Below the pieces are notes generated by a model that ran no database searches, was not told where the DNA came from, and saw only the letters and a list, made by a program, of their open reading frames with translations. Below are positions 1,425 through 49,121 of a stretch of 55,540 nucleotides of DNA, piece by piece. The DNA lies in contig CAJJCQ010000016.1 in assembly GCA_905182725.1 (NCBI GenBank), forward strand, positions 1 through 55,540, written 5' to 3'. The translations under genes were made by a program, and so were the position numbers. Origin of the DNA: an uncultured Candidatus Poseidoniales archaeon. GTDB lineage: Archaea > Thermoplasmatota > Poseidoniia > Poseidoniales > Poseidoniaceae. The first letter of the stretch is position 1. Each line of letters opens with the position of its first letter.

Positions 1425-1531
1425 GATTTGCCCAATGCCAACTACAAAAAAACCCCTCCTACGCATTCGAACGAGTTTTTCTCATTCACCTCGACGGTGA
1501 GCCTTATGGCAAAGAGGCTCTTCGCAGATGT

Positions 1532-2056: not shown

Positions 2057-2069
2057 AAGAAGTGGTAAC

Positions 2070-4082: not shown

Positions 4083-4268
4083 GGATTCTATCGGGCAGTT
4101 GAGACGGTTAAGAAACGTTTTGATTAGTCGTCATTTACTTACTTTATTCCATGCTGCCGGTGATCTGCAATTGAACGGGTCACTGCGAGTGAAGACCAAT
4201 GAATTGGTGTGCAAACGTTCAAGAATCCCTTTGAGGTGGTCAAGATATCCCTTGGGAGCGTCTCTGCT

Positions 4269-5006: not shown

Positions 5007-5016
5007 GGTGAAAGAA

Positions 5017-5949
5017 ATGACAGATACTATAGTAATCGCTGAAATCGTCAAGGGTGCAGTCCACCCTACAACTGCTGAACTCATCACTGCGGCTCTCGCA
5101 CTTGGATCTCAACCTGTTGTTGTTGTCCCTTGCACAGACGCAAGTGTTGCTGATGGCGCCTCCCAATTTTCAGGCGCAGCTCGTATTCTTGCTGCAAAAT
5201 CTGATGTGTTCTCAAACTATGATGCTGCAGGATGGGCATCGGCCCTTGATGCAGTGACACCAGCAGGTATCATCATCACCTCGGCCTCTCCACAATCAAA
5301 AGACCTCGCTGCCCGTTTGGCTGCTCGAAGAGGGATTTCGGTCGTACAAGATGTCGTACAAATCGAAGGTGGAAACTTGACTTCACCAATTTATTCTGGT
5401 AAGGCAATGCAAACTGTATCTCTCAGTGGAAATGCAGTCGTCACTGTTCGCCCGAATGTCTTTGCAGCAGCAGCCAGTGATGGTTCAACCGATGTATCGG
5501 TTGTCGACACGACTGGAAACGTCGCTACTGCGGTTCAAGAGTTCATGGCTCGTGCTTCAACACGTCTCGATGTGGCCGAAGCAAACATCATCATCTCCGG
5601 TGGAAGAGGAATGGGCTCTCCAGCAAATTTCTCTCACTTAGAAGCAATTGCTGATACTTTGGGTGCTGCAGTTGGTGCATCTCGTGCAGCAGTTGACACA
5701 TGGGATGACATCCCTCACTCGATGCAAGTTGGTCAAACTGGAAAGACTGTCAATCCGAATCTCTACATCGCTGTCGGAATCTCTGGCGCCATACAACACT
5801 TGGCTGGAATGCGTTCATCGAAGTATATCGTCGCCATTAACAAAGATGCTGACGCACCTATATTCCAACATGCAGATTATGGAATTGTAGCGACTTGGGA
5901 AGAGGCATTGCCTATTCTTCAATCGACACTTTCGACCATGATGGCGTGA
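5017..5949 (+). CDS. etfA: Electron transfer flavoprotein alpha subunit
   Basis: [50 protein letters not shown]; GAGGTG RBS before ATG 5017. Confidence 0.96.
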
Positions 5950-6732
5950 TTAGGCATATCGCCCACGGCTGTAAACACCAGCACCAGCATCATCTCCAAC
6001 AAAGGGATTCGTTTGTTTTTCATGACCAATTGTCGTCAATGGACCATGGCCAGGGTACACGATGGTATCAGGTGCTAACGGCCAAAGTTGAGTATGAATC
6101 GATTGTGCGAGAACAGTAAAGTCTCCACCGGTGTCTGGCAAATCAGTTCGACCTACAGAACCCGCAAACAATGTATCTCCGACGAACAAATGATCTGGGC
6201 CATCATCAACGATGAGTCGAAGACAACATCCACCGAGCGTATGACCGGGAGTATGAAGAATTTCAAAAGTAAGTGCTCCAATCTCGAGAATTTCACCAGC
6301 AACTAAATCCACATCAGCTATTGCAGGTTCCGGGACTTCGAAACCGTACTTTTGGGCCGAAGAAGGAGCTAATGTTTGCAAATACGTATCATCGGGATGG
6401 AGATACCATTGAACATCATAGCGTTCCAAGAGGTCAGGGATGTGTCCACTGTGGTCAAAATGGGCATGGGTATTGACTAAGGCAACTACCTTTCGAGATG
6501 GAATCTTTTGTTGTATTCTTTCATTGTCTGATCGAGGGCCATTTGACCAATCCGGGCCATTACCGGCAAATCCATCAACCCAATCGATAAGACGTTCAGG
6601 TTCACCACCACCATCAATGATGATTGTATCACCTGTTGCCCGGTCAGTAACGATAGAACAGCGCATCTGTAAAACACCTACAAAGAAGTATTCGACCCAC
6701 GGTTTACTCACGCCCATGTCCATGCTAAACAT
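5950..6732 (-). CDS. MBL-fold metallo-hydrolase (glyoxalase II/YcbL-like)
   Basis: THAHFDH, HTPGHT, GDTLFAGSVGRTDLP, PGHGP; exact start uncertain. Confidence 0.9.
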   Translation of the reverse strand: MFSMDMGVSKPWVEYFFVGVLQMRCSIVTDRATGDTIIIDGGGEPERLIDWVDGFAGNGPDWSNGPRSDNERIQQKIPSRKVVALVNTHAHFDHSGHIPDLLERYDVQWYLHPDDTYLQTLAPSSAQKYGFEVPEPAIADVDLVAGEILEIGALTFEILHTPGHTLGGCCLRLIVDDGPDHLFVGDTLFAGSVGRTDLPDTGGDFTVLAQSIHTQLWPLAPDTIVYPGHGPLTTIGHEKQTNPFVGDDAGAGVYSRGRYA

Positions 6733-6754
6733 CTCCCCTTCAAGAGGCTAGGCC

Positions 6755-8389
6755 CTATTCAATCAAGATATGCAATGAATCACTCGACCATTGTCCATCA
6801 CGGTCACAAATGCGTAATTCAAAACGATGGCTTCCACGTGGAATCCGAACACGAACCTTAGCGGAAGAAGCAATTTCCTTACCACTACTCTCAATCCAAG
6901 ACCAAGTTTGAATACGATCTTGGGGGTCAAAGGAAGTTGAACCATCAAGGGTAACAATTGCGGAACCATCGGCGTCAGCTTTGAGATGCTGATCTTCACC
7001 AGAAACAGCACGTGGGACAAGTATTTCTCCGATTTCAGTGTTCAATTGCTCGAGGAGATCTTCTGAAGGTAAAAGTGCCATTTTAGTAATTGCATCATCA
7101 AGTTGAGTAAGTAGGTCCTCTGTGTCAATGTCAAGTGCTCCATCTTCAGTCACTTTCGGAGGTTCGCCAAAGTCGCCTTCGAGTGCACTGTGTAATGCTT
7201 CCAAGCCGACGTCGGCTGGTTGTGAGGTTTGCATTGATTTTAATTCTTCTTCTGTGAAAAATTCATTCATTGAATCATCTACTCTATAGAGTTCTTCCGC
7301 TGATAATTGTACCGTTTCCTCAGTCTTTTCAAACCACAAATTAAGTTCTGATGCATCGATTTCAAGAAGTTCCTCATTGAATGAAAACAATCCTATCGGC
7401 TCTATTTCGGTCCAATCATTCTGATCTTCACCCGCAAACAAACATACTGAGCCATCAAGTGAAGCTTCAATAAAATGAGGCATTCCTTGATGTTCAATTT
7501 TCCATTCACGCCCATCTGCGTTCAATCCATAAATGTAAAACCACGATGTTGCGGCAATACATCCATTTCGGAAAAGAAGTGTTTGAATCGGATAAGTGCA
7601 TGAAATTCGTGGTTCGGAGGTATAGGAGGATTGACCAGTAAGGTATTCAGTTACGTGGCCATCAGCAAATCCACAGTAGAGACCTTCGTTTGATGGAATC
7701 GCATGCAATAACTGACTCTTTACATCATCTCGGTGGACCAAGACTTGTTGTTTCAGATCCCAAATTTCGATTTCTAAAACCTCTTCATCTCCTGAAACAA
7801 GTGCATAACCTTCTCTCCCAATGACCAGATGATGATTGACATCTGAACCAAGACACGTGATTGATTCACCTGTTTCTCCACGAATTGGTCTTGACCAGAC
7901 CGTTTGTCCGTTTTGAAGGGCTTGAACTTGACCACTTTCGTGTGCTAAAATTAAGTATTCACCAATGGCTGTAAAGCGTAGGATATCAGAATATGTTGTT
8001 GGTAAATCGAAAGGAGTACCATCATAGCCAAACAGATGTAAACGTCCGAGTCCATCAATGACTGCGAGTTGTGAAGGTAATTGCTGTAATGCAAAACCGC
8101 CCGCTCCAATTTCAACTTGCCATAGGACTTTACCTTCGAGGTCTAAACAGGTAAGGCCATATTCATCATCTAAAACAAATATTTGATTACCACGCAATAT
8201 GGCTTTTCGAATCAATGCTGGTGCTTGCCATGAAGTCGAAGGGGCGAGAACTCCTTCTGAACTTTGAGCGATGAAGAGTTTACCATCACCTTCTGCCCAA
8301 ACAGCGACATCACCACCTATTGACATTGCCAAAGCACTCACCTTTGCTTCAGGTTGGAATGCGATATGCACCGAATGGGTACTGAGCAT
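6755..8389 (-). CDS. PQQ-like beta-propeller protein with acidic linker and C-terminal PKD-like domain
   Basis: Blades such as LTCLDLEGKVLWQV and VQALQNGQTVWSR; C-terminal VTLDGSTSFDPQDRIQTWSW...G.HRFELRICDRDG. Confidence 0.65.
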   Translation of the reverse strand: MLSTHSVHIAFQPEAKVSALAMSIGGDVAVWAEGDGKLFIAQSSEGVLAPSTSWQAPALIRKAILRGNQIFVLDDEYGLTCLDLEGKVLWQVEIGAGGFALQQLPSQLAVIDGLGRLHLFGYDGTPFDLPTTYSDILRFTAIGEYLILAHESGQVQALQNGQTVWSRPIRGETGESITCLGSDVNHHLVIGREGYALVSGDEEVLEIEIWDLKQQVLVHRDDVKSQLLHAIPSNEGLYCGFADGHVTEYLTGQSSYTSEPRISCTYPIQTLLFRNGCIAATSWFYIYGLNADGREWKIEHQGMPHFIEASLDGSVCLFAGEDQNDWTEIEPIGLFSFNEELLEIDASELNLWFEKTEETVQLSAEELYRVDDSMNEFFTEEELKSMQTSQPADVGLEALHSALEGDFGEPPKVTEDGALDIDTEDLLTQLDDAITKMALLPSEDLLEQLNTEIGEILVPRAVSGEDQHLKADADGSAIVTLDGSTSFDPQDRIQTWSWIESSGKEIASSAKVRVRIPRGSHRFELRICDRDGQWSSDSLHILIE

Positions 8390-8444
8390 GCATCGTAGAG
8401 GTGACTACCTCAATTAACCTCATCCCTTGCTTGCGTGGGACTGT

Positions 8445-9373
8445 TCATTCAATCCAAGAAGTTGTATCGGGATGAGGGCGGAACTTACTTGGCGCATTGA
8501 TATGTTGCCACAAAGATGCTTTTTCAGCCACCGTCCACCCACAGAGAGGTTCAAGCGTTGACAAAGGTGTCGTTTTAATTGCGGTTTCTCGTCGTTGAAT
8601 GTGTGGTTTAGCTTGTTCAAGTGTGAGACCAACCACCCCCCAGGCTGGTCGTTGAAACATTTGACCAGATTCATATTTAGTCCGACTACGAACTCCGAGG
8701 AAGGGGTCCCATTTCGAGAGTAAACTCACGAACTCAGGTTTTGAGTCAAGTATTGGAATAATTCGTGAACCACGGCGCATGATGAGAAACGAACTCATCG
8801 CATCTTCCTCGGTTTTCAGCTGAACTAAGACATCGCCTTGAACACCTGTAGGCAATCCACCTGGACCGGTATTCGTATTTCAATCGAAGAAACACTGGCA
8901 GATTCAAGAATAATCTTCACCCACCATTCTGGATTTGATAAGTCGACTGAAAGTGAAGGGTCTCGTTCAATTAATGCTGCACTGAGTGCTCTTGCATAGG
9001 ATTGTGAATCCCACTCACCTTTGGCCCCAAGCCGTTTGATTCGCACCCCAAAGGTTCTTTTTCCACCTACACGGTCATGTCGTTCAAGTAAAAGTTCGGA
9101 GATCAGGCCGGGGTCAAGATTTTCAGATAATTCCACGATACGATCCATCGCCACAATTCCCAATCCATGGCACATTAAATCCTCAACCATTTCTGTTGGA
9201 GCACTGGAATAGATGACATCAAATTCTCTCAATCGGTCTCGAATGAGAGGGACTGAGGAATCTTCAGCAAGCTGTATCAAGTTTTTTCGTAATGAACGTT
9301 GAAACGAACGTCGAACAACTTTGGATTTGAGACCGAACTCCCCAAAACGAAGAATCCAAGATTGTTGTGGCAT
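8445..9373 (-). pseudogene. ThiI-like THUMP-domain protein split by a single-base frameshift near 8868-8879 (pseudogene or assembly error)
   Basis: ORF 8825-9373 has LRFGEFGLKS..VRRSF and THUMP (TFGVRIKR..VDLSNPE); the ThiI motif GPGGLPTGVQG continues in another frame into ORF 8445-8855. Confidence 0.75.
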
Positions 9374-9382
9374 TGAAAAGCC

Positions 9383-10924
9383 TTAATCAGCTGTATCGTT
9401 GTGCATATCTACGATTTCATCATCTTCACTGGATTCTTCTTTCGCCAAATCATTGCGAGAGTTGAACAGTTTTTCGAGATAGGCATCGTCAATATCACCA
9501 GTGATGTATTCGCCATTGAAACAACTTGTATCAAATCGAGTAGGAGGGTTTTCACCAATTGATGTTGCTTCAATCAAATCTTCAAGCGTTTGGTAAAAGA
9601 GTCGGTCACTGCCAATGATGGTATTGATCTCATCAATGGTTTTTCCATTTGCAATAAATTCAGTGATTGCTGGCATATCGATCCCATAGACATTCGGATG
9701 GCGAACAGGAGGGGCTGCAGATGCAAAGTAGACTTTCTTAGCACCGACATCACGCGCCATCTCAATGATCTGCGCACTGGTTGTACCACGAACGATGGAA
9801 TCGTCAACCAGAAGAATATTTTTACCCGAAAACTCGTGTTCAATAGCATTGAGTTTACGTCGAACGGATTTTTCTCTCAACGCTTGACCTGGCATGATAA
9901 ACGTTCGACCGACGTACCGGTTCTTGACAAAACCTTCACGGTAAGGCACATCGAGTGCATCAGCCATTTGAAGAGCAGCAATTCGTCCTGAATCAGGTAC
10001 TGGAATGACTGCATCTATGTCATGGTCTGGCCATTGTTCAAGAATACGTTTAGCCAATATGTCGCCTTGATTCAAACGGGCATGGTAAACGGAAATTCCA
10101 TCAATCACTGAATCGGGTCGAGCGAAGTAAACATGTTCAAATATACAGGGTGAGGCTTCAACTTCCTCAGAGCATTGGCGATGGAATAAATGGCCTGAAG
10201 TCGAAATGAAAATTGCTTCACCAGGTTGAACATCACGAACAATTTCAAAGCCAAGTGCAGTGATAGCTACCGATTCACTGGCAACCATCCATTCTGTTTC
10301 ATCGCCAATTTCCCGCTTTCCGAAAATGAGAGGGCGGATTCCATGAGGGTCACGGAATGCCAACAGACCGTAGCCAGAAATGATGGAGACGCAGGCATAA
10401 CTTCCCTTCACTCGCTTATGGAGATTCGAAACGGCACCAAAGACGGATTCGATATCCAGATGAGGTGCACCTTCGATTGAAAGGTTGGATGAGTGGGAAG
10501 TCAGTTCAACTGCAAGCATATTGAGTAAGAGTTCTGAATCGCTTGAGGTGTTCATGTGGCGATGGTGATTATCGGTAAGTTGAATTTGAAGTTCTGAGGC
10601 ATTGGTCAAGTTTCCATTGTGCGCAAGTCCAAGACCGTAGGGGGAATTCACGTAGAACGGCTGTGCTTCTGAACGAGAAGAAGAGCCTGCGGTGGGATAT
10701 CGGACATGGCCGATTCCAATATGGCCCTGTAGTCTACGCATGTGCCGGGTGTAAAAAATATCTGAAACGAGGCCTTTGGACTTCCGCAATCGGAATTGAC
10801 CGTCAAAATCAGTCATGATACCGGCAGCATCTTGACCACGATGCTGAAGAACAGTGAGTCCGTCATAGATCAATTGATTGACATGGACATTGTTACGCCC
10901 GACGATTCCAATGATTCCACACAT
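9383..10924 (-). CDS. purF: Amidophosphoribosyltransferase
   Basis: N-terminal [34 protein letters not shown] motif [19 protein letters not shown]. Confidence 0.97.
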
Positions 10925-15054: not shown

Positions 15055-15477
15055 TCATCTCATGTTTTGGCGTCGAACCAAATCGGGAATCAAGAATAAA
15101 TCGAGTAACCAACCAAATCCAAATAAACCAAAGGTAAAAAGATAGACCACTCCAATGACTATATCGTTCAAATAAAACCGGTGGGCTCCGAAAAAGCCAA
15201 GGAAAAGCCACAACAAGTAAGCCACTAAGGTGTCTTTTTGTGCACCGTAATAGATGGTTTGACCGCCATGTTGCTGGTAGTAATTTGGATAAGGTTGTTG
15301 CTGAACAACTTGAACCGGTTGTTGGTAAACCGGCTGCTGTGCCACCACCTGCTGAACTGGAGCTTGTGGAGCTGCGTGATAGTGATTATGAACAACCGTC
15401 CCCGTGTGAATATCTCCTGAAACAACGCTGTCTTTGATGTTTGGAGATGAGCCTGGCGCTGGTTCCATGTGGCTCAC
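15055..15477 (-). CDS. TM2 domain membrane protein with Gln/Pro-rich N-terminus
   Basis: KDTLVAYLLWLFLGFFGAHRFYL...GVVYLFTFGLFGFGWLLDLFLIP is the TM2 signature. Confidence 0.88.
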   Translation of the reverse strand: MSHMEPAPGSSPNIKDSVVSGDIHTGTVVHNHYHAAPQAPVQQVVAQQPVYQQPVQVVQQQPYPNYYQQHGGQTIYYGAQKDTLVAYLLWLFLGFFGAHRFYLNDIVIGVVYLFTFGLFGFGWLLDLFLIPDLVRRQNMR

Positions 15478-15528: not shown

Positions 15529-15611
15529 CGCCGAGAGAGAGATTTGAACTCCCGCGTCCAAGGGACAGTGGATTTCGAATCCACCGCAATACCGGGCTAT
15601 GCGATCTCGGC
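15529..15611 (-). tRNA. tRNA-Ser(CGA)
   Basis: Reverse complement GCCGAGATCGCATAGCCCGGTATTGCGGTGGATTCGAAATCCACTGTCCCTTGGACGCGGGAGTTCAAATCTCTCTCTCGGCG: acceptor stem, GTGGA/TCCAC anticodon stem with CGA, long variable arm, TTCAAAT T-loop, G discriminator, no intron. Confidence 0.95.
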
Positions 15612-15666
15612 CGCAGATGTCGGGTTTAGCGCCACCGTCATAAGCATGGCGTTGACTCGTAGTTGT

Positions 15667-15867
15667 ATGGAGATACACCTCAAGGGGCGTGACTATGATG
15701 TCAAAGTAGAACTCGATGGTGAACAAACTGTCCGACAGGCGCTACTTGAGGCTGGAATCCACCCCTCAACAGTCATTGTCAGTTACGATGGGACAATCTT
15801 GCCGCACGCCACTGTATTGTCCCAATCGGTACAACTGTTGGTCATCACCATTTCATCCGGCGGTTAA
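15667..15867 (+). CDS. Ubiquitin-like MoaD/ThiS-family protein (SAMP-like)
   Basis: 66 aa beta-grasp pattern (TVRQALLEAGI..STVIVSYDG) ending in di-glycine SSGG. Confidence 0.85.
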   Translation: MEIHLKGRDYDVKVELDGEQTVRQALLEAGIHPSTVIVSYDGTILPHATVLSQSVQLLVITISSGG

Positions 15868-17705
15868 TCTCGTTGTACACGTTCGATGATCTGGAACTTG
15901 GTATTCTGTGAAATATTGCCACGAACTTCTACAGCCCAAGCGTCTAATCCGAGATTAGCGACAACAATTGTATCGCCGATTTGCGCCAAATCATACTGAG
16001 TACCCCAATCATTAGCCCAACCTTCAACTTTCATAGCACCAGTTGCATCCAAAATCATGGCCCCCTTTCGATGCCATTCCTTCCCATTACGTCCAACACC
16101 ACGTTTTTCAAAGCGGTAAATAAGGCGTCCAGCAACGTTCCAACGTGCACGGAATTCCAGCAAGTCCGAGCCGACTTCATCTTCTGAAGCATGTACTACA
16201 CATGCATGTGGATCGACTTTGAGTTCAATCTCGCCCTTCCAATTGGCAGTTGGAATCACTTGGTCGAGTTTCACTCGGTCACCTTTTGCAATGTTTTGAG
16301 GCCACGATGGTTCACCATCTTGGTGTTGATCAACCAAGAGAATCACCTTGGCGAAATGATCACCCTGAGAAATCGTAATTCGAGGGCGATGTCCTTCTTT
16401 GACTCCCATAACACTGAACACTTCGCCAACAAAGGTCATGCGAGGATCAAGGTCACCAAGTGGTGTGATCTCAATATCAGTAGGGGTGCCTGGCAATCGA
16501 ACTAAACCGCCGGATGGAAGGTCATCGTCACCTTGTCCACCCGGACATACAGAGGCCCAATCACAACGGTCACAACGGACTTCATCGGGTGCTTCTATAG
16601 CGATTCCACCATTCTTAAAACCACGCACTGGAGATGGGTTCGGTGGACAGTCCTCAAGCACCGGTGTTGTTTCTCTAATTTGATGCCACATTGATTCAAG
16701 TTCGGATTCCATTTCAGTCATTTCTGAAACGGTAGGACATGCAATCGTCTTAATTGAATTTGCACCGAGGTACCATATTTCAAGCACATCGACCTGTTCC
16801 TTCTTTTCGTGAGTAATCCACCACAACATCGCATACATGCGTAATTGTTCAACGTAATTACCGGAACGGTCACCGCGACCTACGCTGGCTTTCAAGTCAA
16901 CAATATTGATTCGACCATCCCATCGGTAAATTAAATCATATTCACCTTGAAACCAATGTTCGGGATGTATTGCATTCATTGCAAACTTTCCTGCATTTGG
17001 ATCAACAAACCAAGGGCGGGTTATTTCCCAAGCTTCAATCAAACTGACCTCACCGTCTTGTGAAAGAGGATGATTATTGGAAAGTGTGTATCGGCGAGCA
17101 TCAGGTGCTGGCCATTCAGGTCGGTGTCCTCTACGCCATTCTTTCAGACCTGGCCCACCGTTTTGGTCAAGGCAACGCTGAACTTCATTCAAATGAAATT
17201 CAAGGCCATTGATGCACATTTTGAGACAATAATCAGGATTTACTGATTTCCAATCGCCAGCTCTCCGTTCATCTTTTTTCCATTCTTCTTTCATTGAATT
17301 GAGTGCGAGGTGGAGATGGACCTTCAACCGCCCAATTGCCCATTGTCGAAGACTGTCGAGGCTCTGTGGCTGCATGTTCTCAGGTAAAGCCAACAGACGT
17401 TCTGCTGGCCAAGGGTCGAGGCTTGAACGGCTTGGAACTCCATCCTCATCCAGTGGGATGGCTGAAAGAGTGTCCGATGATGCCTTCGAAACCAAAAGCG
17501 CTGGAGATTCCATCAACATACGGCAAATCGCTTCTTCAACGGCTCTACCAACAAATAATACCGGTATTTGCGGCATCTTGAAACGCCGAACTTTCTCGTA
17601 AAACCATAGCCGTGGACACGCGCGATAAGCGTTCACTTGGCTTGCTGAAAGTCGGTTATATGGGCCAACAGAATCTTCAGAGGATGTGACAAGACTTACC
17701 GGCAT
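15864..17705 (-). CDS. PD-(D/E)XK RecB/Cas4-like nuclease with Fe-S cysteines and two C-terminal OB folds (paralog A)
   Basis: LSASQVNAYRACPRLWFY, GEYDLI..IVDLKAS, QLRMY, CDRCDWASVC; OB-like C-terminus (WNVAGRL...ILDATGAMKVEGW...IGDTIVV). Confidence 0.8.
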   Translation of the reverse strand: MPVSLVTSSEDSVGPYNRLSASQVNAYRACPRLWFYEKVRRFKMPQIPVLFVGRAVEEAICRMLMESPALLVSKASSDTLSAIPLDEDGVPSRSSLDPWPAERLLALPENMQPQSLDSLRQWAIGRLKVHLHLALNSMKEEWKKDERRAGDWKSVNPDYCLKMCINGLEFHLNEVQRCLDQNGGPGLKEWRRGHRPEWPAPDARRYTLSNNHPLSQDGEVSLIEAWEITRPWFVDPNAGKFAMNAIHPEHWFQGEYDLIYRWDGRINIVDLKASVGRGDRSGNYVEQLRMYAMLWWITHEKKEQVDVLEIWYLGANSIKTIACPTVSEMTEMESELESMWHQIRETTPVLEDCPPNPSPVRGFKNGGIAIEAPDEVRCDRCDWASVCPGGQGDDDLPSGGLVRLPGTPTDIEITPLGDLDPRMTFVGEVFSVMGVKEGHRPRITISQGDHFAKVILLVDQHQDGEPSWPQNIAKGDRVKLDQVIPTANWKGEIELKVDPHACVVHASEDEVGSDLLEFRARWNVAGRLIYRFEKRGVGRNGKEWHRKGAMILDATGAMKVEGWANDWGTQYDLAQIGDTIVVANLGLDAWAVEVRGNISQNTKFQIIERVQRD

Positions 17706-17752
17706 ACCTGTGAGTGTTTTGTCGAATGTTCTTGAACCCTACTCTCTGGAAT

Positions 17753-19516
17753 TCAATCCTTTACTTGCAGACGCGTTTTTCTCGAGTCGATTCGAAGTTG
17801 AGGCAATCCTGCTCTCCAGCCCATTTCGGCAGCCAATAATTTGAGTGTTTGACCTGGCCGTAGTGCTTCCATTTGACCGGTTATACTCGAACCGAAGGAA
17901 GCAACTTCAACAATTGAATGCCCATCCCAAAGGTGGACGTTGAGCATAGTCCATGGTTTGGCATCCAATCGAATCCCAGAACGCTTGCGAACACTGAGAA
18001 CAACGCCTTCGACGTTCGCCCGTGTGCGAAGTAAACCGATGCGAGTTGTTCGTTCTGAAAGAGAAAGTGGTGTCTGTTCAAATTCTTTGGCTGCTTGCGC
18101 AACTGGCATTATTCTAGTTCGCGAATCGACATATAACCGAGGCGCACCACGCCAGACTCCGGGTAATGCGTCTAAAATCACGAGTTCTCCAGTCGGTTGG
18201 TCGTGAAGAAGAGGATATGTGCCTGGTTCGCTCTCTTCAACTGTAATTTGTGCACCTCCGGCAACAAGCATTGCACCCAAAACGGGTTCTCCGAAATGGT
18301 TGGGCAATGGACCCCATGCACCTGTAAACTTTCCTTGAACACTAACTCGAACTGGTATTTCCGACAAAGGTTCACTCGGGACTGTAAGGGGGATTTCTCG
18401 CAATGGAGTGATTTCTGAGAGTAATTCATCGCCAGACCAAGTTCCCTCTTCATCTCGGGCAAGACTGCACCAATGACAACCCGCCGCGCTACCATCACAG
18501 GCCTCACTTGGAAGAACTGGCATGCTTGCCGGCCCTGAACCCATGTTTTGCATTTCAGTGTTGATGCGTGAAAATTCAGAGGTCATTTCAGTGTACTCAG
18601 CAGCTTGTGGGACTTCATAGACAATACGATGAGGTCCATTGAGGTACCAGCCTTCCAAACCGTCGATGCATTGTCCATCGTGGGTTTCATGCCAAAGCCA
18701 GCCATAGAAACGAAGTTGGTGTTGAAGCGATTCTGCAAATTTAGAACTTGGATCGCCAGATTTGATATCGACCAGGCGTATTCGCCCATCCCATCGAAGG
18801 ACAAGATCAAGTTCACCTGCTGCCCAACGTTCTGGATGAAACAAACGTTGAGGTTGGTGGACGCGAGGGTCTTTGGTCCATGGACGAGCAATTTCGAGTG
18901 CTTCATTCCAAGTAACTGCAGAACCGGGAGATTGCCATTGCATGGCTTGTCCTTCAACGGCCCAGGAACGCAACTCATAATTTCGAACCTTATCTGGAAC
19001 AGGGAAAGAGGGTTCATCTCCCCAAGCAGGTGACGGGACCTCGAATGGTGATTCTCCTGCCCTGTAGAGTTCTAAATATGGCCCACCGTTTTCTTGGTAG
19101 CAGGATTCAATTTCTTCAAAGAGGAGCACCAGACCGTTTTCAAGTCGGGCAATAAAAGAATCAATTTCCACATCCTCCCACGAAGTTCCTGGTTCATACC
19201 AAATCCCTTCATCCCAAAGAATACGACCTGCATCGAGGGCTTCTTGTGCAGCCTTTGGAAGCAAAGTGTGCATCCAATCTTTCAATTCCGATAGTGTTTT
19301 AATTTGCATTGTAGGACGTTGCATCATGACTCCACAAAATGCATCTTCAAGGACAATCCCAATCACCTGAGATGGTCGAAGTGGGCCGGAGATTCCGACT
19401 TTTGAACCAAGAAACCACTGCCGTTTGCAGCGAAGGAAAGTCGTCAAACCACTTGCAGAGATTCGTGAGCGAGAACGTCCCAATGGGCCACCAAGTGGAG
19501 GAATTCCTACAGGCAT
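17753..19516 (-). CDS. PD-(D/E)XK RecB/Cas4-like nuclease with C-terminal OB folds (paralog B)
   Basis: ISASGLTTFLRCKRQWFL, GELDLV..LVDIKSG, QLRFY, C..GCHWC; OB-like ANVEGVVLSV...LWDGHSIVEVASF...LRPGQTLKL. Confidence 0.8.
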   Translation of the reverse strand: MPVGIPPLGGPLGRSRSRISASGLTTFLRCKRQWFLGSKVGISGPLRPSQVIGIVLEDAFCGVMMQRPTMQIKTLSELKDWMHTLLPKAAQEALDAGRILWDEGIWYEPGTSWEDVEIDSFIARLENGLVLLFEEIESCYQENGGPYLELYRAGESPFEVPSPAWGDEPSFPVPDKVRNYELRSWAVEGQAMQWQSPGSAVTWNEALEIARPWTKDPRVHQPQRLFHPERWAAGELDLVLRWDGRIRLVDIKSGDPSSKFAESLQHQLRFYGWLWHETHDGQCIDGLEGWYLNGPHRIVYEVPQAAEYTEMTSEFSRINTEMQNMGSGPASMPVLPSEACDGSAAGCHWCSLARDEEGTWSGDELLSEITPLREIPLTVPSEPLSEIPVRVSVQGKFTGAWGPLPNHFGEPVLGAMLVAGGAQITVEESEPGTYPLLHDQPTGELVILDALPGVWRGAPRLYVDSRTRIMPVAQAAKEFEQTPLSLSERTTRIGLLRTRANVEGVVLSVRKRSGIRLDAKPWTMLNVHLWDGHSIVEVASFGSSITGQMEALRPGQTLKLLAAEMGWRAGLPQLRIDSRKTRLQVKD

Positions 19517-19531
19517 TGTATCATAATCTCC

Positions 19532-21310
19532 TCAATGGTTAAACGAATAGAAATCCCCAACACTTCGCTGTTCTCTGTCTTTTCGACTTTCCAGTTTATT
19601 GATTCTTGGGCGCTTCGAATCATGGTCTCGACGGAAGGTGATATTGACCCCTTCAAGGAAACGATTCATTCCCTCGCGAAGTTTGAATGGGCCTTCTGCT
19701 TTACCATGGATTCCACCTTCGCCTTCAAAGACGAGAAGTGAATCGCTTACGATATCAATGAAGTAGACATCGTGGTCGATGACGAATGCAGATTTTTCAT
19801 TGGCTTCCATCGTTCTTCGAATTGCCTTTGCAGCTTCCATTCGAGCGTTTGCATCGAGGTGTGCGGATGGTTCATCCAGCAGGTAAAGATCGGCATCTCT
19901 TCCAAGGCAAATGGCGATTGCAACTGCCTGACGTTCTCCACCAGAGAGTTTCTTGACTCGCTTTGGAAGGAGTTCATCTACGCCTAAAGCACGAATCACG
20001 TTGACATTGTATTCACCTACTCGCCACTTTGGACCAATCTCGCTATCAAGCCATAATTGGACACTGCAATCCATGTCAACATCAATATGCTGAGGTTTGT
20101 ATGAAACCGTTGCGTTTTCAGTGACCCATCCATCATCATAGCCGTGTTCTCCTGCTAAGATTTTAATCATGGTTGATTTTCCTGTGCCGTTTGGACCTAC
20201 GACACCTACGACTTCGGAACGATGCACTGCACCTTCACCAGTGGTAAGTTGGAACTCACCAAGTTTCTTGGAAAGTCCACCCCAAGATACGACTTCAGCA
20301 CCAAGTTCGGATACTCGGTCACTGTGGTTAAGGAACTTGATTGGTTTGTCACGAATACGGACATTTTGTTCTGGTAAGAATCCATCGAGATAGGTGTTAA
20401 TGGCTTGACGAGTTGTTCGGGCAGGAGTGAAAATTCCAAAAGCACCCTTCTTGCCGTAGACGATATGGACCAAATCCGCAAGTACGTCGAGAACTGCAAG
20501 GTCGTGTTCAATTACAATTACTCGCTTTGTCTCTGCGAGTTTTTGTATAATTCTCACAATCCGCATACGTTCGTGAATATCCAGATAAGATGAGGGTTCG
20601 TCAAAGAAATAAACATCAACATCACGTAAAAGTGTAGCACAAATAGCCATACGTTGTAATTCACCACCAGAAAGTTGCTGGACAGTTCGGTCGAGTAGAT
20701 GGTCGATTGCAAGTTCTTTGGTCATCTCTTCAAACATACCTCTTTCGTCGACGCGTGAAAGTAAATCACGAACGGTACCTTTGATTTTATGCGGCAAACG
20801 ATCTACGTTTTGGGGTTTCAAAGCCACTTTGATATCGCCTTTCTCGACTGAAATGAAGAAGTCTCTTAATTCGCCGCGTGGAAGAGATTCAATGATGTCT
20901 TCCCAGTCAGCATCTTTGTTCAGCCAGTCACCAAGGTTCGGGATCATTCGACCTGAAAGCGCATTAATTGCAGTCGATTTCCCCATACCGTTCGGTCCAA
21001 GGATTCCAACGACACTTTCCTTTGAAGGAGTCGGCAAGCGGAACAGCCGGAAACCGTTCATCGAATAGCGATGAATCATATCGGTTTCGAGTTCACTTGG
21101 TAGTTGTTCGATAATCAAAGCATCATGTGGACATTTGTTAATGCAAATACCGCAACCAATACACAGGCTTTCTGAGATGTGAGGTTTACCGGTTTTATCA
21201 TCCATAATGATGCATTCTTGTCCATTCCGAACAGGTGGGCAGAATGCTTGACATTCGTCGTTACATTTCTTTGGTTGACAATGATCTTCTTTCAGAACTG
21301 CGACTCTCAT
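19532..21310 (-). CDS. rli: Ribosome recycling ATPase ABCE1/RLI
   Basis: CQPKKC..EC..FCP and CIGCGICINKCP Fe-S domain; two ABC domains (GPNGMGKST, LSGGELQR, DEPSS; GPNGTGKST, LSGGERQ); TFRRD...RPRINK. Confidence 0.97.
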   Translation of the reverse strand: MRVAVLKEDHCQPKKCNDECQAFCPPVRNGQECIIMDDKTGKPHISESLCIGCGICINKCPHDALIIEQLPSELETDMIHRYSMNGFRLFRLPTPSKESVVGILGPNGMGKSTAINALSGRMIPNLGDWLNKDADWEDIIESLPRGELRDFFISVEKGDIKVALKPQNVDRLPHKIKGTVRDLLSRVDERGMFEEMTKELAIDHLLDRTVQQLSGGELQRMAICATLLRDVDVYFFDEPSSYLDIHERMRIVRIIQKLAETKRVIVIEHDLAVLDVLADLVHIVYGKKGAFGIFTPARTTRQAINTYLDGFLPEQNVRIRDKPIKFLNHSDRVSELGAEVVSWGGLSKKLGEFQLTTGEGAVHRSEVVGVVGPNGTGKSTMIKILAGEHGYDDGWVTENATVSYKPQHIDVDMDCSVQLWLDSEIGPKWRVGEYNVNVIRALGVDELLPKRVKKLSGGERQAVAIAICLGRDADLYLLDEPSAHLDANARMEAAKAIRRTMEANEKSAFVIDHDVYFIDIVSDSLLVFEGEGGIHGKAEGPFKLREGMNRFLEGVNITFRRDHDSKRPRINKLESRKDREQRSVGDFYSFNH

Positions 21311-23364: not shown

Positions 23365-23472
23365 ATCTCAATAAACGCTTGAAAACAACGGTTCTTTCCA
23401 ACCGGCGCGATAACCTTCATGTGCTCTCGGCAACGACAGTAAACTCCAGCGAGAGCAAGGAGCGTATTGAGT

Positions 23473-26127
23473 ATGACAAAAAGGGGGATGATGGACCAAT
23501 TCATGGACATCAAAAAGGAACACCCCGATACGATTCTTTTTTTCCGAATGGGCGATTTCTACGAGTTGTTTCATGAAGATGCCGTTCTTGGTTCTGAAGT
23601 CCTCGGTTTGGCATTAACTTCACGTGATAAAAAAGCGGATAAACCCATTCAAATGGCCGGTTTCCCATGGCATGGGCTTGAAGATAATATTCGCGTTATG
23701 CTAAAAGCAGGACACAAAGTTACAGTTGCTGAGCAAGAACAAGAACTGAGAGAAGGAGCAAAATTACTCGAACGTATCGTTACTCGAGTCTACACACCAG
23801 GAAGTCTGTATGAAGAATCCTTACTTGGAACCGATGAACGTTCCCTTCTGGTGTCAGTTGCCCTTGGAAAATCTGCCCTCGGAATTGGAATCGTTGACGC
23901 TTCAACTGGACAAGCATGGGCATCAAACTTGAATGGTGAAGATCGATTTGCTCGAGCATTGGATGAAATCATGCGTTGGCGACCAACTGAAATCGTAGTT
24001 TCACCTCAAGATGCAGAAGATACTGCGTTGTGTGCCCTTTTCTCCCACCTCGATAACGTCCTAATCAGTCAGCATAGAGCAAGTGAAAACAAACGAAGAA
24101 AGAGACTTGAAAAAGTACTCAAAGTCGCAGACCTCGGACATTTAGATTTAGATGACTCCCCTCTTGCTTTAGCAGCTGCTGGTTTAGCTGCCGACTATCT
24201 TGCAACCATGCATATTGCAGACGAAGTTCCACTTCGCGATATCGAAGTCATCGATGAATCTGGACATCTTGTGCTTGACCAAACCACTTTGAGAAACTTG
24301 GAATTAACTTCGACACTTGCAGGAGAGTTTGAGGGAAGTCTGCTTTCTACAATGAATGCATGTCGCAGTTCAATGGGAAGAAGATTGCTCAAAACTTGGA
24401 TTTTAAGACCACTTTGCAATCTTGAAGCAATCGGTGCTCGTCACGAAGCAGTAGGGTCACTCTCTCGTTCAGCTCGCCGTCTTGAAGGATTACGAGAAGC
24501 ACTCCGTGGACTACGAGACATGGAACGTTTAGCCACACAACTGGCCTATAACCGTTCAAATGGTCGTGACTTAATTGCCGTATGTGATGCTCTCGAACGA
24601 ATGCCAGCCATCATCAATCTTTGTAATGAAACAGAAAATCCCCTCTTAGGTCACCTTTCACATCAATTGGATGCCTTAAATGAACTTGCAGAAGATATTC
24701 GGCGTACTTTAGTCGATGAACCACCCCTCAGTATTCGTGATGGGAAACTCATCCGACCTGGACTCCATTCAGCGATTGACGAACTCCATGAAACATCAGC
24801 ATCGGGACATTCATGGTTCAGCGATTTAGAATCTAAATTACGAATTGAATTAGAAATACCTTCTCTCAAAGTGCGAATGAACCGACAGATTGGATGGTTT
24901 ATTGAAGTCACCAAACTAAATGAAGCAAGAGTTCCTGAAGAATGGCGAAGAAAGCAACAAATGACGAATGGTTCACGTTACGTCACCGAGGAACTTGCGC
25001 AAAGAGATGACCTGCTACTCACTGCAGATACCAAAGTAAAGGAACTGGAATATCGAGAATTCACATCACTGCGTGAACGGTGTCGAATACATGCACAAGA
25101 ACTGGCAAATATCGCTGGGCGAGTGGCGGCAATCGACGTCTTGCAATGTTTCGCTTCTATCGCACGTTCCCGTTCATGGACCCGACCTGAATTAACCGAC
25201 GGCCATCACCTGAAGGCTGAAGGTGCACGACATCCGACCTTGGAAATGCAATCTGGGTTTGTACCAAATGATATACAATTGCAAAAGAAACGAAACTTCT
25301 TGTTGATCACCGGACCCAACATGGGTGGTAAATCGACCTACCTTCGGACGACTGCACTGCTCACCATTCTTGCTCAAACCGGTAGTTTTGTTCCTGCTAA
25401 AAAAGCAAGAATCGGACTTGTCGACCGAATATTCACACGTGTTGGAGCAAGTGATGACCTCCGTCGTGGGCGTTCTACATTTATGATGGAAATGATTGAA
25501 GTTGCCCACATCCTCCGCAGAGCAACCCCGCAATCCCTCGTTTTACTCGATGAAATTGGACGTGGAACTTCAACATTTGACGGTTTGTCAATCGCTTGGT
25601 CTGTAACGGAAGACATCTGTAAAAGAATTGGAGCACGGACTTTATTTGCAACGCATTACCATCAATTGATTGGCCTTGAAGGCGAAGTTGACGGATTGGT
25701 CAATGTCCATGTTCAAGTTGCTCAGGCTGACGGTGAACTTCGATTCCTTCACACGGTTGCTGATGGCCCATGTGATGACTCATACGGTGTGCAAGTCGCT
25801 GCTTTAGCAGGCTTACCACGCCCTGTTGTCGAACGAGCAAGTGATCTGCTTGCTTTCCTTGAACAACAAGCTCATGGTGCTAAGGCTGGTGAATCGGGAA
25901 CTCCTTCTGCTCGCGCAGAAGGTCAATCCAGTTTAATGGGATATTTTGCCGCTGCTGCAATGACACAAAATAATGGCACGGCACAACCTGTTCCAAGCAT
26001 CAGTTCAGAAGAGAAAGAAACACTTGATTACCTTTCGAATATCGATGCCGATGAACTTTCCCCTCGTCAAGCACATGATGCCCTCTATAGACTAAAGAAA
26101 ATTCTCGGAGGTGCTCCTAATGTCTGA
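23473..26127 (+). CDS. mutS: DNA mismatch repair protein MutS (MutS1)
   Basis: FFRMGDFYELF mismatch-binding motif, ITGPNMGGKSTY, STFMMEM, DEIGRGTST, ATHYH, SYGVQVA. Confidence 0.97.
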   Translation: MTKRGMMDQFMDIKKEHPDTILFFRMGDFYELFHEDAVLGSEVLGLALTSRDKKADKPIQMAGFPWHGLEDNIRVMLKAGHKVTVAEQEQELREGAKLLERIVTRVYTPGSLYEESLLGTDERSLLVSVALGKSALGIGIVDASTGQAWASNLNGEDRFARALDEIMRWRPTEIVVSPQDAEDTALCALFSHLDNVLISQHRASENKRRKRLEKVLKVADLGHLDLDDSPLALAAAGLAADYLATMHIADEVPLRDIEVIDESGHLVLDQTTLRNLELTSTLAGEFEGSLLSTMNACRSSMGRRLLKTWILRPLCNLEAIGARHEAVGSLSRSARRLEGLREALRGLRDMERLATQLAYNRSNGRDLIAVCDALERMPAIINLCNETENPLLGHLSHQLDALNELAEDIRRTLVDEPPLSIRDGKLIRPGLHSAIDELHETSASGHSWFSDLESKLRIELEIPSLKVRMNRQIGWFIEVTKLNEARVPEEWRRKQQMTNGSRYVTEELAQRDDLLLTADTKVKELEYREFTSLRERCRIHAQELANIAGRVAAIDVLQCFASIARSRSWTRPELTDGHHLKAEGARHPTLEMQSGFVPNDIQLQKKRNFLLITGPNMGGKSTYLRTTALLTILAQTGSFVPAKKARIGLVDRIFTRVGASDDLRRGRSTFMMEMIEVAHILRRATPQSLVLLDEIGRGTSTFDGLSIAWSVTEDICKRIGARTLFATHYHQLIGLEGEVDGLVNVHVQVAQADGELRFLHTVADGPCDDSYGVQVAALAGLPRPVVERASDLLAFLEQQAHGAKAGESGTPSARAEGQSSLMGYFAAAAMTQNNGTAQPVPSISSEEKETLDYLSNIDADELSPRQAHDALYRLKKILGGAPNV

Positions 26128-28129
26128 ACCGAACCGGATTCTACAACTCGATGAAACAACCATTGGCCATATCGCGGCTGGTGAAGTCGTTGAACGACCT
26201 GCGCAAGTGGTCAAGGAATTACTTGAAAACAGCCTTGATGCTGGAGCAACACGCCTTGTGATTACTGTTGAGCGTGGCGGTTTTGACTTGATTCGAGTTG
26301 AAGATGACGGGAGTGGAATCGATGAACAAGACCTCCGTTTAGCATTGGACAGACACGCAACTTCAAAGTTGCAAAAAGCAGAGGATTTGAATTCTATCCA
26401 TACCCTCGGGTTCCGAGGTGAGGCTTTAGCAAGTATCGGCATGGTTTCGCACCTTTCAATTTCAAGTCGTCCTGCCGGAAAAGAAGGAAAATCAATTGCA
26501 ATGAAGAATGGAGAAAAGGGACTCGTAGAGCCATTCGGCATGCAAACTGGCACCCGTGTTGATGTTGAACACTTATTCCGGAATACTCCCGCTCGTCTCG
26601 CCTTCCAACGGCGACCTGCTACTGAAAACGCTCGGGTTGTTGATGTGGTTGTTGCACATGCCATGGCCCACCAGTTGACTGGATTCCGATTGGTCATCGA
26701 TGAGCGAGTTATGCTTGATATCCCTCCAGCAGAATCCATGATGGACCGGCTATTCGACCTACTCGGTGGTCAAGTCGAATCAATGCTTGAGATCACACCT
26801 CCTGAAAATGACGCTGAAGCGCCTGGCCAAGAACAGTGGAGTGGATGGATCAGTACCCCTGATATTACTCGTGGAAAAGGCGACGACATACATATTCTCA
26901 TCAACGAGAGACCTGTTGCTGCAGGGCCATTTCTTCAAGCCATACGTCGAGGTTACCGCACCCGTTTGATGCAAGGAAGGCACCCTATTGCTGTTCTTTC
27001 GCTTACATTGCCACCAGAAGAAGTCGATGTTAACGTTCATCCAACCAAACGTGAAGTTCGTCTTCGCCATTCCTGGCGTGTTTTGGAACGTCTTGAACGC
27101 GCCATTGCCCACACCCTCGAATCTGTCCCGACCCAACCTGATGCTGCGGGAGGTATTCCTGGGCTACAAGGTCTCGGCATACAGAAAGTAACTCCAATTC
27201 AAGAACATCTTTCGACTGTGAAAGCGCCTACGGTCGACCCATTGGATGCTGCTGCGGGAGCCCCAACCCTCGTACTCCCTCGAGAAACAAAAACCGAAGC
27301 CCCTCCTGCATGGGCCATTGCTGCAGGTGCACAATTGAACCTTCATGGAGTAGAAGCATCTGAACCGGATTCCACCGAAAAGATGCGACCTCAATCAACG
27401 GCTCCTGAAGCCCAAGAAACATTACCTGGATTAGATGAGAAGCCAATGGCTCCAGCATTATCACCTGCAGAACGGACACTTCACCGTCATGCAGGTTGCG
27501 GACATAGAACTTCTCCGAATGAAGAACAACCCCTTGAAGGCATCATCAATGAGTTACCGGAAATGGAACCTCTCGCCCAATTTGCAGACTCGTACATCTT
27601 AGTACAAGCTGAAGGTGAATTGTTGTTAATCGACCAACATGCACTCCACGAACGTATACGGTACGAACGTTTGCGAAACGATGACTCTCTGTGGGAGAGT
27701 CAAGCGAAACTCGAACCGATTCAATTAAACCTTGATGCCCGACAATCTGTACGAATGTCAGCAGCAGTCGAGACATTGAGTGAAGTTGGATTTTCATTAC
27801 GTGAAAATGACAATGGATGGGTGATTGACGCTGCACCTCATCTACTCGAAGGTGAAGAACTGGTTCCATTCCTACTCGACTTACTGCAAGATACTGCAGA
27901 AGATGGCGCACCACTTGAAACAGTTGACCGACGTAAAGATCACCTTGCATTCCTCAATGCATGCCGAGGTGCAGTCAAAGCAAATGAAAAGTTGACATTA
28001 CCAGAAATGCGAAGATTAGTCGATGATATGCGACGAATCACAAATCCATGGGCTTGCGTTCATGGACGCCCAACCGCGTTACGGCTTCCGTTGAATTCTC
28101 TGGACCACCATTTCGGCCGTCATGGTTAA
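26120..28129 (+). CDS. mutL: DNA mismatch repair endonuclease MutL
   Basis: IAAGEVVERPA.VVKELLENSLDAGA, TLGFRGEALASI, VDVNVHPTKREV, endonuclease motifs DQHALHERIRYE, ACRGAVK, CVHGRP; GGAGGTG RBS. Confidence 0.97.
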   Translation: MSEPNRILQLDETTIGHIAAGEVVERPAQVVKELLENSLDAGATRLVITVERGGFDLIRVEDDGSGIDEQDLRLALDRHATSKLQKAEDLNSIHTLGFRGEALASIGMVSHLSISSRPAGKEGKSIAMKNGEKGLVEPFGMQTGTRVDVEHLFRNTPARLAFQRRPATENARVVDVVVAHAMAHQLTGFRLVIDERVMLDIPPAESMMDRLFDLLGGQVESMLEITPPENDAEAPGQEQWSGWISTPDITRGKGDDIHILINERPVAAGPFLQAIRRGYRTRLMQGRHPIAVLSLTLPPEEVDVNVHPTKREVRLRHSWRVLERLERAIAHTLESVPTQPDAAGGIPGLQGLGIQKVTPIQEHLSTVKAPTVDPLDAAAGAPTLVLPRETKTEAPPAWAIAAGAQLNLHGVEASEPDSTEKMRPQSTAPEAQETLPGLDEKPMAPALSPAERTLHRHAGCGHRTSPNEEQPLEGIINELPEMEPLAQFADSYILVQAEGELLLIDQHALHERIRYERLRNDDSLWESQAKLEPIQLNLDARQSVRMSAAVETLSEVGFSLRENDNGWVIDAAPHLLEGEELVPFLLDLLQDTAEDGAPLETVDRRKDHLAFLNACRGAVKANEKLTLPEMRRLVDDMRRITNPWACVHGRPTALRLPLNSLDHHFGRHG

Positions 28130-49018: not shown

Positions 49019-49121
49019 CACAGCCCCCTCGGTCTCCTCCATGGGTTGACAACCGCGCCAACAGTCCAAAAGGACAACGCTTGGAAAGTTTCAATCCGAC
49101 ACCCATAAGACCCCTCTTCCC

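Follow-up and report, generated by a model that had tools for sequence, protein, structure and literature searches.

Two adjacent genes, here called A and B, lie in positions 1 to 55,540 (forward strand) of contig CAJJCQ010000016.1, from the assembly GCA_905182725.1 of an uncultured Candidatus Poseidoniales archaeon; this whole stretch of 55,540 nucleotides (nt) is referred to below as the window. Each gene encodes a protein in which a Cas4/AddB-type PD-(D/E)XK nuclease domain is followed by two OB folds resembling those of RPA, and neither protein contains a helicase. With slightly better than even confidence, we read A and B as motor-less nucleases of single-stranded DNA (ssDNA) tails or flaps that act in genome maintenance and that join the iron-staple PD-(D/E)XK group to an RPA-like tandem OB module.

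Two paralogous Cas4/AddB-type nucleases

A and B are co-oriented and separated by 47 nt (Table 1). Their products share 24% identity over the full length (BLASTP, E 2e-39), which is far above chance and bears out the paralogy proposed in an earlier, sequence-only reading of the window. The open reading frames (ORFs) and all motifs quoted in that reading were recovered exactly from the translations. The SAS..C motif is formed by S20-S22 and C30 in A and lies at identical positions in B. The Trp-rich insert contains NGGPGL, EAWEITRPWFVDP and HPEHWFQGEYDL in A, corresponding to NGGPYL, EALEIARPWTKDP and HPERWAAGELDL in B, and the RecB motif is QLRMY in A and QLRFY in B. In public databases, relatives are annotated as 'PD-(D/E)XK nuclease family protein', as 'Cas4 (RecB family)' or as 'hypothetical protein'.

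PDDEXK_1 (PF12705) was the sole Pfam family found in each protein (58 bits for A and 47.4 bits for B, with a cut-off of 22), and it was matched by 71/71 family members. We aligned 40 A-type and 31 B-type sequences from across the order and also used these alignments as input for structure prediction. The resulting AlphaFold2 models were confident, with a predicted local distance difference test score (pLDDT) of 91.8 and a predicted template modelling score (pTM) of 0.87 for A, and a pLDDT of 91.4 and a pTM of 0.88 for B. When the nuclease domain of A was compared with solved structures using VIA-align, the best match was ACE1 (9iab_B, Z 15.4, root-mean-square deviation (rmsd) 3.5 over 238 aligned residues), followed by AdnA (7sjr_A, Z 14.1), AddB (4ceh_B, Z 13.2) and Dna2 (5eax_A, Z 11.1). 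That of B matched AdnA (7sjr_A, Z 13.5), Dna2 (5eaw_A, Z 13.2) and ACE1 (9iac_B, Z 12.9), with lower scores for AddB (4cej_B, Z 10.8), Cas4 (8d3l_J, Z 10.7) and MGME1 (Z 10.1). Overall, the fold search therefore placed both domains with ACE1, AdnA, AddB and Dna2 at Z ~11-15. In the models, a Trp-rich and mostly helical insert of ~140-180 residues in each nuclease domain remained unaligned to the solved templates.

The residues expected at the active site are invariant: D257, D270, K272, Q287 and Y291 in 40/40 A sequences, and D237, D250, K252, Q267 and Y271 in 31/31 B sequences. Because these residues never vary, both A and B look catalytically competent. The two proteins differ in their Cys residues. 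In A, C30, C378, C381 and C387, the predicted iron-staple Cys, are all invariant (40/40). In B, C30 is kept in 29/31 sequences and two Cys of the cluster in 30/31, and the third is found at its canonical place (C-x2-C-x5-C) in 7/31 only. It lies upstream instead in most Poseidoniaceae rows of the alignment, including that of the window (C-x6-C-x2-C; two rows have C-x-C-x2-C). All four Cys of the 1+3 staple are present in B of the window, and B of one locus (L023) has an alignment gap across the Cys-cluster columns and keeps the catalytic residues. The alignment thus indicates that the cluster site of B has been remodelled. In excerpts of PMC12094033, the 1+3 Cys pattern is described as the 'iron staple' of the Cas4 family.

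We did not detect any helicase family in A or B with Pfam or NCBIfam, and the models consist of a nuclease and two OB folds only. The NCBIfam model for Cas4 (TIGR00372) matched the N-terminus of A at E 4e-4 (20.2 bits, with a cut-off of 65) and did not match B. There was likewise no match in A or B to the Dna2 nuclease family (PF08696), which was matched by 1/71 relatives (E 0.0037), and a search of PDB sequences with A and B gave no match at E up to 1. Pfam, the AlphaFold2 models and the invariant residues agree on what the sequence-only reading had claimed, namely a Cas4/AddB-type nuclease with intact catalytic residues, a predicted Fe-S cluster and no helicase.

Tandem OB folds resembling those of RPA

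The same reading had guessed that each protein ends in two OB folds. In the AlphaFold2 models the C-terminal ~200 residues of both A and B form two beta-barrels, and structural comparison with Foldseek and VIA-align identified these as OB folds. With whole A as query, Foldseek returned RPA70 (4gop_C, E 8.8e-9) and also HIN-200 and Teb1, at a probability of 1.00; with whole B it again returned RPA70 (4gop_C, E 1.4e-8, probability 1.00). The top matches of the whole proteins were thus tandem-OB modules (RPA70 DBD-A/B, HIN-200, Teb1). In VIA-align, the OB module of A was closest to Pyrococcus abyssi RPA (8oej_D, Z 12.3, rmsd 2.6 over 102 aligned residues) and Methanocaldococcus jannaschii RFA (3dm3_A, Z 12.2), and that of B matched P. 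abyssi RPA (8oej_D, Z 11.2). The anticodon-binding OB domains of AspRS and AsnRS scored nearly as well as RPA (Z ~11-12).

Among relatives, sequence profiles pointed in the same direction. Pfam PF01336 was matched by 19/71 family members (best E 1.2e-7), and the family profile matched an 851-residue archaeal RPA through its positions 409-606 (E 1.9e-20). The C-terminal segments from the window itself had no Pfam match at E up to 0.1, and both matched PRK07218, an NCBIfam model for archaeal ssDNA-binding protein, at E 0.07-0.15.

Table 1. Features of the A/B locus and of other genes in the window. Positions are those of the window; residue numbers (aa) are those of the respective protein.
Feature	Position	Strand	Description and basis
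TM2-domain membrane protein	15055-15477	-	Downstream of A; N-terminal half Gln/Pro-rich
107-aa ORF	15544-15867	+	Weak SAMP2/ubiquitin-like match, E 0.044
Gene A	15864-17705	-	613 aa; downstream member of the pair; ORF and translation
A tandem OB folds (OB1 ~aa 400-510, OB2 ~aa 515-613)	15867-16508	-	Foldseek and VIA-align
A nuclease domain (aa 9-392)	16530-17681	-	Cas4/AddB/AdnA-like; helical Trp-rich insert ~aa 67-245; VIA-align and Pfam PDDEXK_1
A Cys cluster C378-x2-C381-x5-C387 (CDRCDWASVC)	16545-16574	-	Predicted to pair with N-terminal C30
A catalytic D257...D270-L-K272	16890-16937	-	Invariant in 40/40 A-type sequences
Gene B	17753-19516	-	587 aa; upstream member of the pair; ORF and translation
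B tandem OB folds (~aa 378-475, ~495-587)	17756-18385	-	Strongly conserved, Trp/Arg-rich; Foldseek and VIA-align
B nuclease domain (aa 15-352)	18461-19474	-	Catalytic D237...D250-I-K252; VIA-align matches
B Cys cluster C340-x6-C347-x2-C350 (CDGSAAGCHWC)	18467-18499	-	Spacing rearranged
ABCE1 (RLI)	19532-21310	-	Pfam Fer4_RLI, Fer4 and two ABC_tran stretches; 15 nt upstream of B
MutS	23467-26127	+	Bacterial-type
MutL	26111-28129	+	Bacterial-type
Hel308-like helicase	46427-49069	-	DEAD, Helicase_C and archaeal helicase domain 4; ~27 kb from the pair

Distribution across the order Poseidoniales and beyond

With A or B as query, the family was matched in 195/201 sampled Poseidoniales genomes, including 61/61 high-quality genomes and 24/24 genera; the completeness of the six genomes lacking a match is 79-88%. 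When the class was searched with a profile, matches were obtained in 64/65 genomes of family f1 and 39/40 of family f3 (Thalassarchaeaceae), but in 0/43 of the sister family f4, and in family f5 only at E ~1e-4. In a sample of 251 genomes from the phylum, all 47 genomes of the order besides that of the window were matched (30/30 of f1, 17/17 of f3), and the best listed matches from the order span nearly the whole profile. Among the matches listed outside the order (E 3.5e-14 or weaker; the search gave at least 108 further matches beyond those listed), only the OB part of the profile was covered, in ORFs mostly of ~420-570 residues. The near-universal occurrence within the order argues for a core function, and together with the conserved gene order described below it upholds what the sequence-only reading had proposed on this point.

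A scan of 1.84 billion cluster representatives of any length gave 86 matches at E <=1e-30, corresponding to ~32 full-length family clusters and fragments. Among the best 150 of these 1.84 billion representatives we found no long fused relative. Full-length relatives were not found in other Thermoplasmatota among the matches listed, nor among PDB sequences, and no relative was found in viral contigs. Matches in the ESM Atlas were limited to Thermoplasmatota clusters of the family itself and a single Cas4-like cluster from bacteria, and no structure was available there. As far as sampled, the architecture is confined to one abundant uncultured archaeal order.

The nearest outsiders (P0305, P0309 and P0334) are proteins of 444-477 residues that share the nuclease and insert motifs and are 23% identical to A (E 1e-20); the short C-terminal part of each may be one OB fold. 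One outsider (L052, 2870-4378, + strand) lies on a high-GC contig of 5 kb that is labelled proteobacterial. The product of a neighbouring gene looked GatD-like, by eye only; this would be an archaeal trait.

A candidate B-A fusion ORF in genome G130 (L069, 1247-4774; about 1175-1187 residues) was rejected as an artefact, as its junction is a run of X residues translated from N bases in the contig. In automatic annotation, this N run would pass as a gene fusion.

Loss of B and asymmetric constraint on the OB folds

A occurs alone in 66 sampled genomes, which belong to seven Thalassarchaeaceae genera with small genomes (g14, g15, g16, g17, g19, g23 and g24). In these genera the B query scored at the same level as the A/B cross-match (E 8e-18 to 4e-34 at most), and wherever coordinates were listed its match sat on an A-type ORF. 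The A profile, which is more sensitive, likewise found no more than one or two matching stretches per sampled genome, also in a single-contig genome, with the exception of one fragmented assembly. At the 10 A-only loci examined, the downstream neighbours of A were kept, and ABCE1 and B were gone upstream. The neighbours of A in one A-only genome (a radical-SAM protein, an aminotransferase, a DeoC-like protein and a peptidase S51) gave no functional lead.

In a tree of 45 sequences, A and B were split with 100% support in the Shimodaira-Hasegawa-like approximate likelihood-ratio test (SH-aLRT). All 10 single genes formed one clade (support 99) within A, which was sister to A of the pair-bearing Thalassarchaeaceae genera (96). 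From this topology it follows that the A/B duplication predates the last common ancestor of Poseidoniales and that B was lost once. We also observed one Poseidoniaceae genome (G196, 85% complete; L023, 5787-7601) in which ABCE1 is followed by B and in which A was found neither in the 7.4 kb downstream nor elsewhere in the assembly. It may represent a B-only lineage without the cluster, as judged from this single genome at 85% completeness. The sequence-only reading had listed single occurrence of the genes in relatives among the findings that would refute it; such occurrence was seen in part of the order, with A alone in the 66 genomes and B alone in one, while the family itself is near-universal.

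Where both genes are present, their OB folds are under different constraint. Across 16 pair-bearing genomes, pairwise identity averaged 0.39-0.45 over the nuclease parts of A and 0.23-0.25 over its OB folds; the corresponding values for B were 0.35-0.50 and 0.41-0.47. Positions conserved in >=90% of sequences numbered 90 in the nuclease and 9 in the OB folds of A, compared with 64 and 50 in B, and many of the conserved OB positions of B are Trp or Arg. In pair-bearing lineages, the ratio of OB to nuclease identity, calculated from 6-10 related sequences per group, was 0.66-0.71 for A and 1.12-1.19 for B; A of the A-only clade had a ratio of 1.01. This pattern suggests that, where B is present, the substrate is held mainly by the OB module of B, leaving that of A free to drift, and that the OB folds of A came under constraint again when B was lost. 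We regard the asymmetric constraint as the best indirect support for cooperation in one process, and it leads us to propose that A and B serve one shared pathway. A complex prediction with full-length A and residues 1-385 of B, from which the OB folds of B were left out and which had no controls, gave scores of 0.00 and 0.00, which speak neither for nor against an A-B interface.

An alternative is that A and B are two independent nucleases that do not form a complex, that is, co-transcribed paralogs working as monomers or homo-oligomers on substrates that differ in kind or polarity (e.g., 5' versus 3' tails). This would account for the presence of A without B in seven genera and possibly of B without A in one genome, for the full catalytic sets in both proteins and for the compact monomer models (pTM 0.87-0.88). 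However, relaxation of the OB constraint on A only with B present, and its restoration on loss of B, fit a joint or overlapping function better, and the tight spacing between B and A (22-51 nt in 14/16 loci) has been kept across the order. We consider independent nucleases rather unlikely.

Other DNA-end machinery in the same genomes

In the sequence-only reading, the OB folds took the place of the motor of AddAB-like enzymes, giving a resection, flap or repair nuclease that may use a separate helicase such as Hel308. As a resection machine, A and B would form an AddAB/AdnAB-like heterodimer for motor-less processing of double-strand breaks, each subunit degrading one strand of a duplex opened by that helicase. 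As in AddAB and AdnAB, the two paralogous nucleases are encoded side by side with both active sites intact, and AdnA and AddB nuclease domains are among the best structural matches. A Hel308-like helicase gene is present in the window, and searches of five genomes did not show the resection set that is usual in archaea: NurA was found in 0/5, with archaeal controls positive, and no Rad50 zinc hook (PF04423) scored over the cut-off in any of the five, a weak negative since that model was positive in only 3/14 controls. Dna2 (PF08696) and Rep_fac-A_C (PF08646) also had no match over the cut-off in the five genomes, and both negatives are weak (controls positive in 2/14, with 1 over the cut-off, and in 1/14, respectively).

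These genomes nevertheless encode a helicase-nuclease pair of their own that can fill the role. In the genome of the window (G000; contig C17, L051), an AddB-like ORF (943-4785, + strand, 1280 residues, C-terminal PDDEXK_1) adjoins an AddA-like ORF (4782-9734, + strand, 1650 residues; UvrD helicase, UvrD_C and PDDEXK_1). The same pair occurs in genome G003 (L048, 1499-5224 and 5221-10161; 1241 and 1646 residues), and an AddB-like ORF is present in the A-only genomes G027 and G023. Judging from these genes, Poseidoniales seem to use a bacterial-type, AddAB-like end-resection machine, and the idea that OB folds replaced the motor of such a machine is weakened accordingly. B is dispensable in 66 genomes, none of the 27 examined loci links a helicase gene to the pair, and no evidence connects it with Hel308. 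Given the AddAB-like machine, we rank a resection machine below a more general tail or flap nuclease and think it unlikely to be correct.

Gene order and neighbouring genes

We examined 17 pair loci from 17 pair-bearing genomes (16 genera) in addition to the 10 A-only loci. ABCE1 lies directly 5' of B on the same strand in 17/17 pair loci, and A follows B in 16/17. The gap between ABCE1 and B is 5-53 nt in 16/17 loci (15 nt in the window) and that between B and A is 22-51 nt in 14/16. A gene for ribosomal protein L10e (PF00252) lies upstream, and a conserved block of PAC2, Nop10, eIF2alpha and L44e (L44e assigned by Pfam) downstream. The upstream neighbours named in the sequence-only reading, ABCE1 and rpl10e, were thus confirmed by Pfam (Fer4_RLI/ABC_tran and PF00252). 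Short contigs from four marine metatranscriptome runs (4 studies) mapped to both genes with 95-100% identity. One of these (19366-19792) spans the ABCE1/B junction; for the B-A junction there was no bridging contig among those listed, which leave at least 53 further pieces.

This arrangement could be taken to mean that the pair has an RNA-directed role tied to ABCE1, cutting mRNA or other RNA in ribosome rescue or recycling, with OB folds that bind RNA. The position of ABCE1 directly upstream of B at such short distances, the contig across their junction and the neighbouring translation genes (L10e, L44e, eIF2-alpha and Nop10) are all consistent with this, as are the likeness of the OB folds to AspRS and AsnRS tRNA-binding domains, roughly equal to that with RPA, and the match of some members to PF01336. 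But A is not beside ABCE1 in the 10 A-only loci, and archaeal operons often combine translation and DNA-metabolism genes. Moreover, the characterised members of the Cas4/AddB/AdnA/Dna2/MGME1 group are, to our knowledge, all DNA-acting enzymes. ACE1, as described in excerpts of PMC12094033, agrees with this. An RNA-directed role is therefore improbable. The more specific version, in which B and A are co-transcribed with ABCE1 and serve the same process as a ribosome-rescue or mRNA-surveillance endonuclease, a Cas4-type Fe-S nuclease turned to RNA with OB folds like those of anticodon-binding domains, seems to us a shade less probable still.

The claim that the pair has no CRISPR/cas link also stood: Cas1 (PF01867) was found in 0/5 genomes, with controls positive, and the window contains no tandem repeat array. 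A pair of solo-Cas4-like defence nucleases degrading plasmid or virus DNA is hardly credible. In its favour, ACE1, whose structure matches A best, is an accessory nuclease in defence, and PADLOC gave weak matches to its Cas4 and DruK models. But those matches, like the ones to PHROGs, are at superfamily level only (PADLOC E 8e-6 at best), no relatives were found in viral contigs, Cas1 was not found in the five genomes searched, and the genes are near-universal at a fixed chromosomal site among housekeeping genes, unlike patchy defence islands.

Several other genes were noted around the pair. The bacterial-type MutS and MutL genes, which overlap by 17 nt, lie 4-8 kb from the pair on the opposite strand, and the position of MutS is kept in five Poseidoniaceae loci (L015, L016, L018, L019 and L022). 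On the other side, the TM2-domain membrane protein is encoded downstream of A on the same strand. The 107-residue ORF converges on the 3' end of A with a 4-nt overlap, and homologous ORFs are found in the same place in L016, L019, L025 and L036.

Proposed function

We propose that the paired OB folds would grip an ssDNA tail, flap or gap exposed by some other activity, in the manner of RPA70 DBD-A/B, and would present it for cutting at the Fe-S nuclease site (D..DxK, QxxxY). Neither A nor B would be able to unwind duplex DNA itself. Cutting of ssDNA without opening of a duplex is suggested by the homology with ACE1, Cas4, AddB/AdnA, Dna2 and MGME1. A would be the better-kept nuclease and B the better-kept nucleic-acid-binding subunit, one with an intact active site. 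The two would work in a single pathway and would probably form a complex; taken by itself, a physical A-B complex has roughly even odds within this scheme. The pathway would be a housekeeping one, in which ssDNA tails or long flaps are trimmed during replication or repair, as by the nuclease half of Dna2, and would be neither CRISPR adaptation nor defence against mobile elements. A role in housekeeping genome maintenance is inferred from the order-wide universality of the family, its fixed position among information-processing genes and the lack of a viral, CRISPR or defence context in our searches. A and B would together make a self-sufficient 'bind and trim' enzyme.

Several points weigh against this proposal. 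The substrate, the polarity and the metal cluster are assigned by homology, and RNA is another ligand of such OB folds (compare the Z ~11-12 for AspRS and AsnRS), while the conserved partner of the pair, ABCE1, is a translation factor. An A-B heterodimer is not obligatory, because 66 genomes in seven genera carry A alone through a single loss of B, and the possible B-only genome G196 has a gap across the Cys cluster of its B. The contrast in OB-to-nuclease ratios comes from few related sequences and the A-only clade is the younger group, so that the contrast may be overstated. Finally, contigs from RNA libraries indicate the presence of these sequences and are not proof of their transcription.

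For marine Group II archaea, an abundant ocean lineage, the DNA-maintenance toolkit is known from annotation only. A and B add to it a lineage-wide conserved pair with the domain design of no studied enzyme, in a lineage that has a bacterial-type AddAB-like pair but, in the five genomes examined, no NurA. The paralogs also offer a natural experiment in the division of labour, as the constraint on the OB folds of A relaxes in the presence of B and returns on its loss. If the proposal is biochemically correct, A and B would be compact, helicase-independent ssDNA-processing nucleases and an example of AddAB-like two-nuclease systems built around binding modules and not around motors.

Comparison with known systems

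Each part of A and B is known; the combination of an Fe-S nuclease, a large helical insert, two RPA-like OB folds, no motor and a conserved gene pair is undescribed in the literature and databases searched. The expectation that the pair would match no characterised family was thus borne out for the whole architecture by PDB sequences, the 1.84 billion representatives and the literature. Our literature search found no description of this architecture, although supplementary files, which were outside the search, might list one, and in excerpts of a Cas4 phylogenomics paper (PMC5704561) the term 'OB-fold' occurs 0 times.

ACE1, an Argonaute-associated Cas4-family protein, is the best structural match of A and shares with A and B the D..DxK site and the 1+3 Cys pattern of the 4Fe-4S staple. 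Excerpts of PMC12094033 describe it as a 4Fe-4S endonuclease of ssDNA that is unable either to unwind or to cleave duplexes. It differs in being a cyanobacterial protein of ~270 residues with no OB folds, with a prokaryotic Argonaute (pAgo) partner in defence and with 9-16% identity to A and B, which add to such a core the helical insert of ~140-180 residues and two OB folds.

AdnAB and AddAB resemble the pair in having two paralogous Cas4-like nuclease modules side by side, as B and A are in 16/17 pair loci, and their nuclease domains match at Z 13-14 for A and 10.8-13.5 for B. Their subunits are, however, of ~1000-1250 residues and carry superfamily 1 (SF1; UvrD-like) helicase motors, whereas A and B end in OB folds and are only a candidate heterodimer.

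Dna2 (5eaw, 5eax and 5ean) is likewise an Fe-S PD-(D/E)XK nuclease acting on ssDNA flaps or tails, with Z 11.1 for A and 13.2 for B. The Dna2 structure paper reportedly describes a nuclease domain that shares its polypeptide with an OB or beta-barrel domain. Dna2 differs from A and B in its SF1B helicase half and its domain order, and A and B do not match PF08696. CRISPR Cas4 shares the superfamily and the Cys staple, and B aligns with Cas4 of Cas4-Cas1-Cas2 complexes at Z 10.4-10.7, but A falls far below the TIGR00372 cut-off, and both proteins of the pair are three times the length of Cas4 and have OB folds in addition.

On the binding side, the tandem OB folds of A and B are closest to P. 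abyssi RPA, to the RFA proteins of M. jannaschii and Methanococcus maripaludis and to RPA70 DBD-A/B (Z 10-12). They differ from archaeal RPA and RFA in being joined to a nuclease and in having no Zn-ribbon or Rep_fac-A_C part, and their binding of ssDNA is predicted from the likeness to these proteins.

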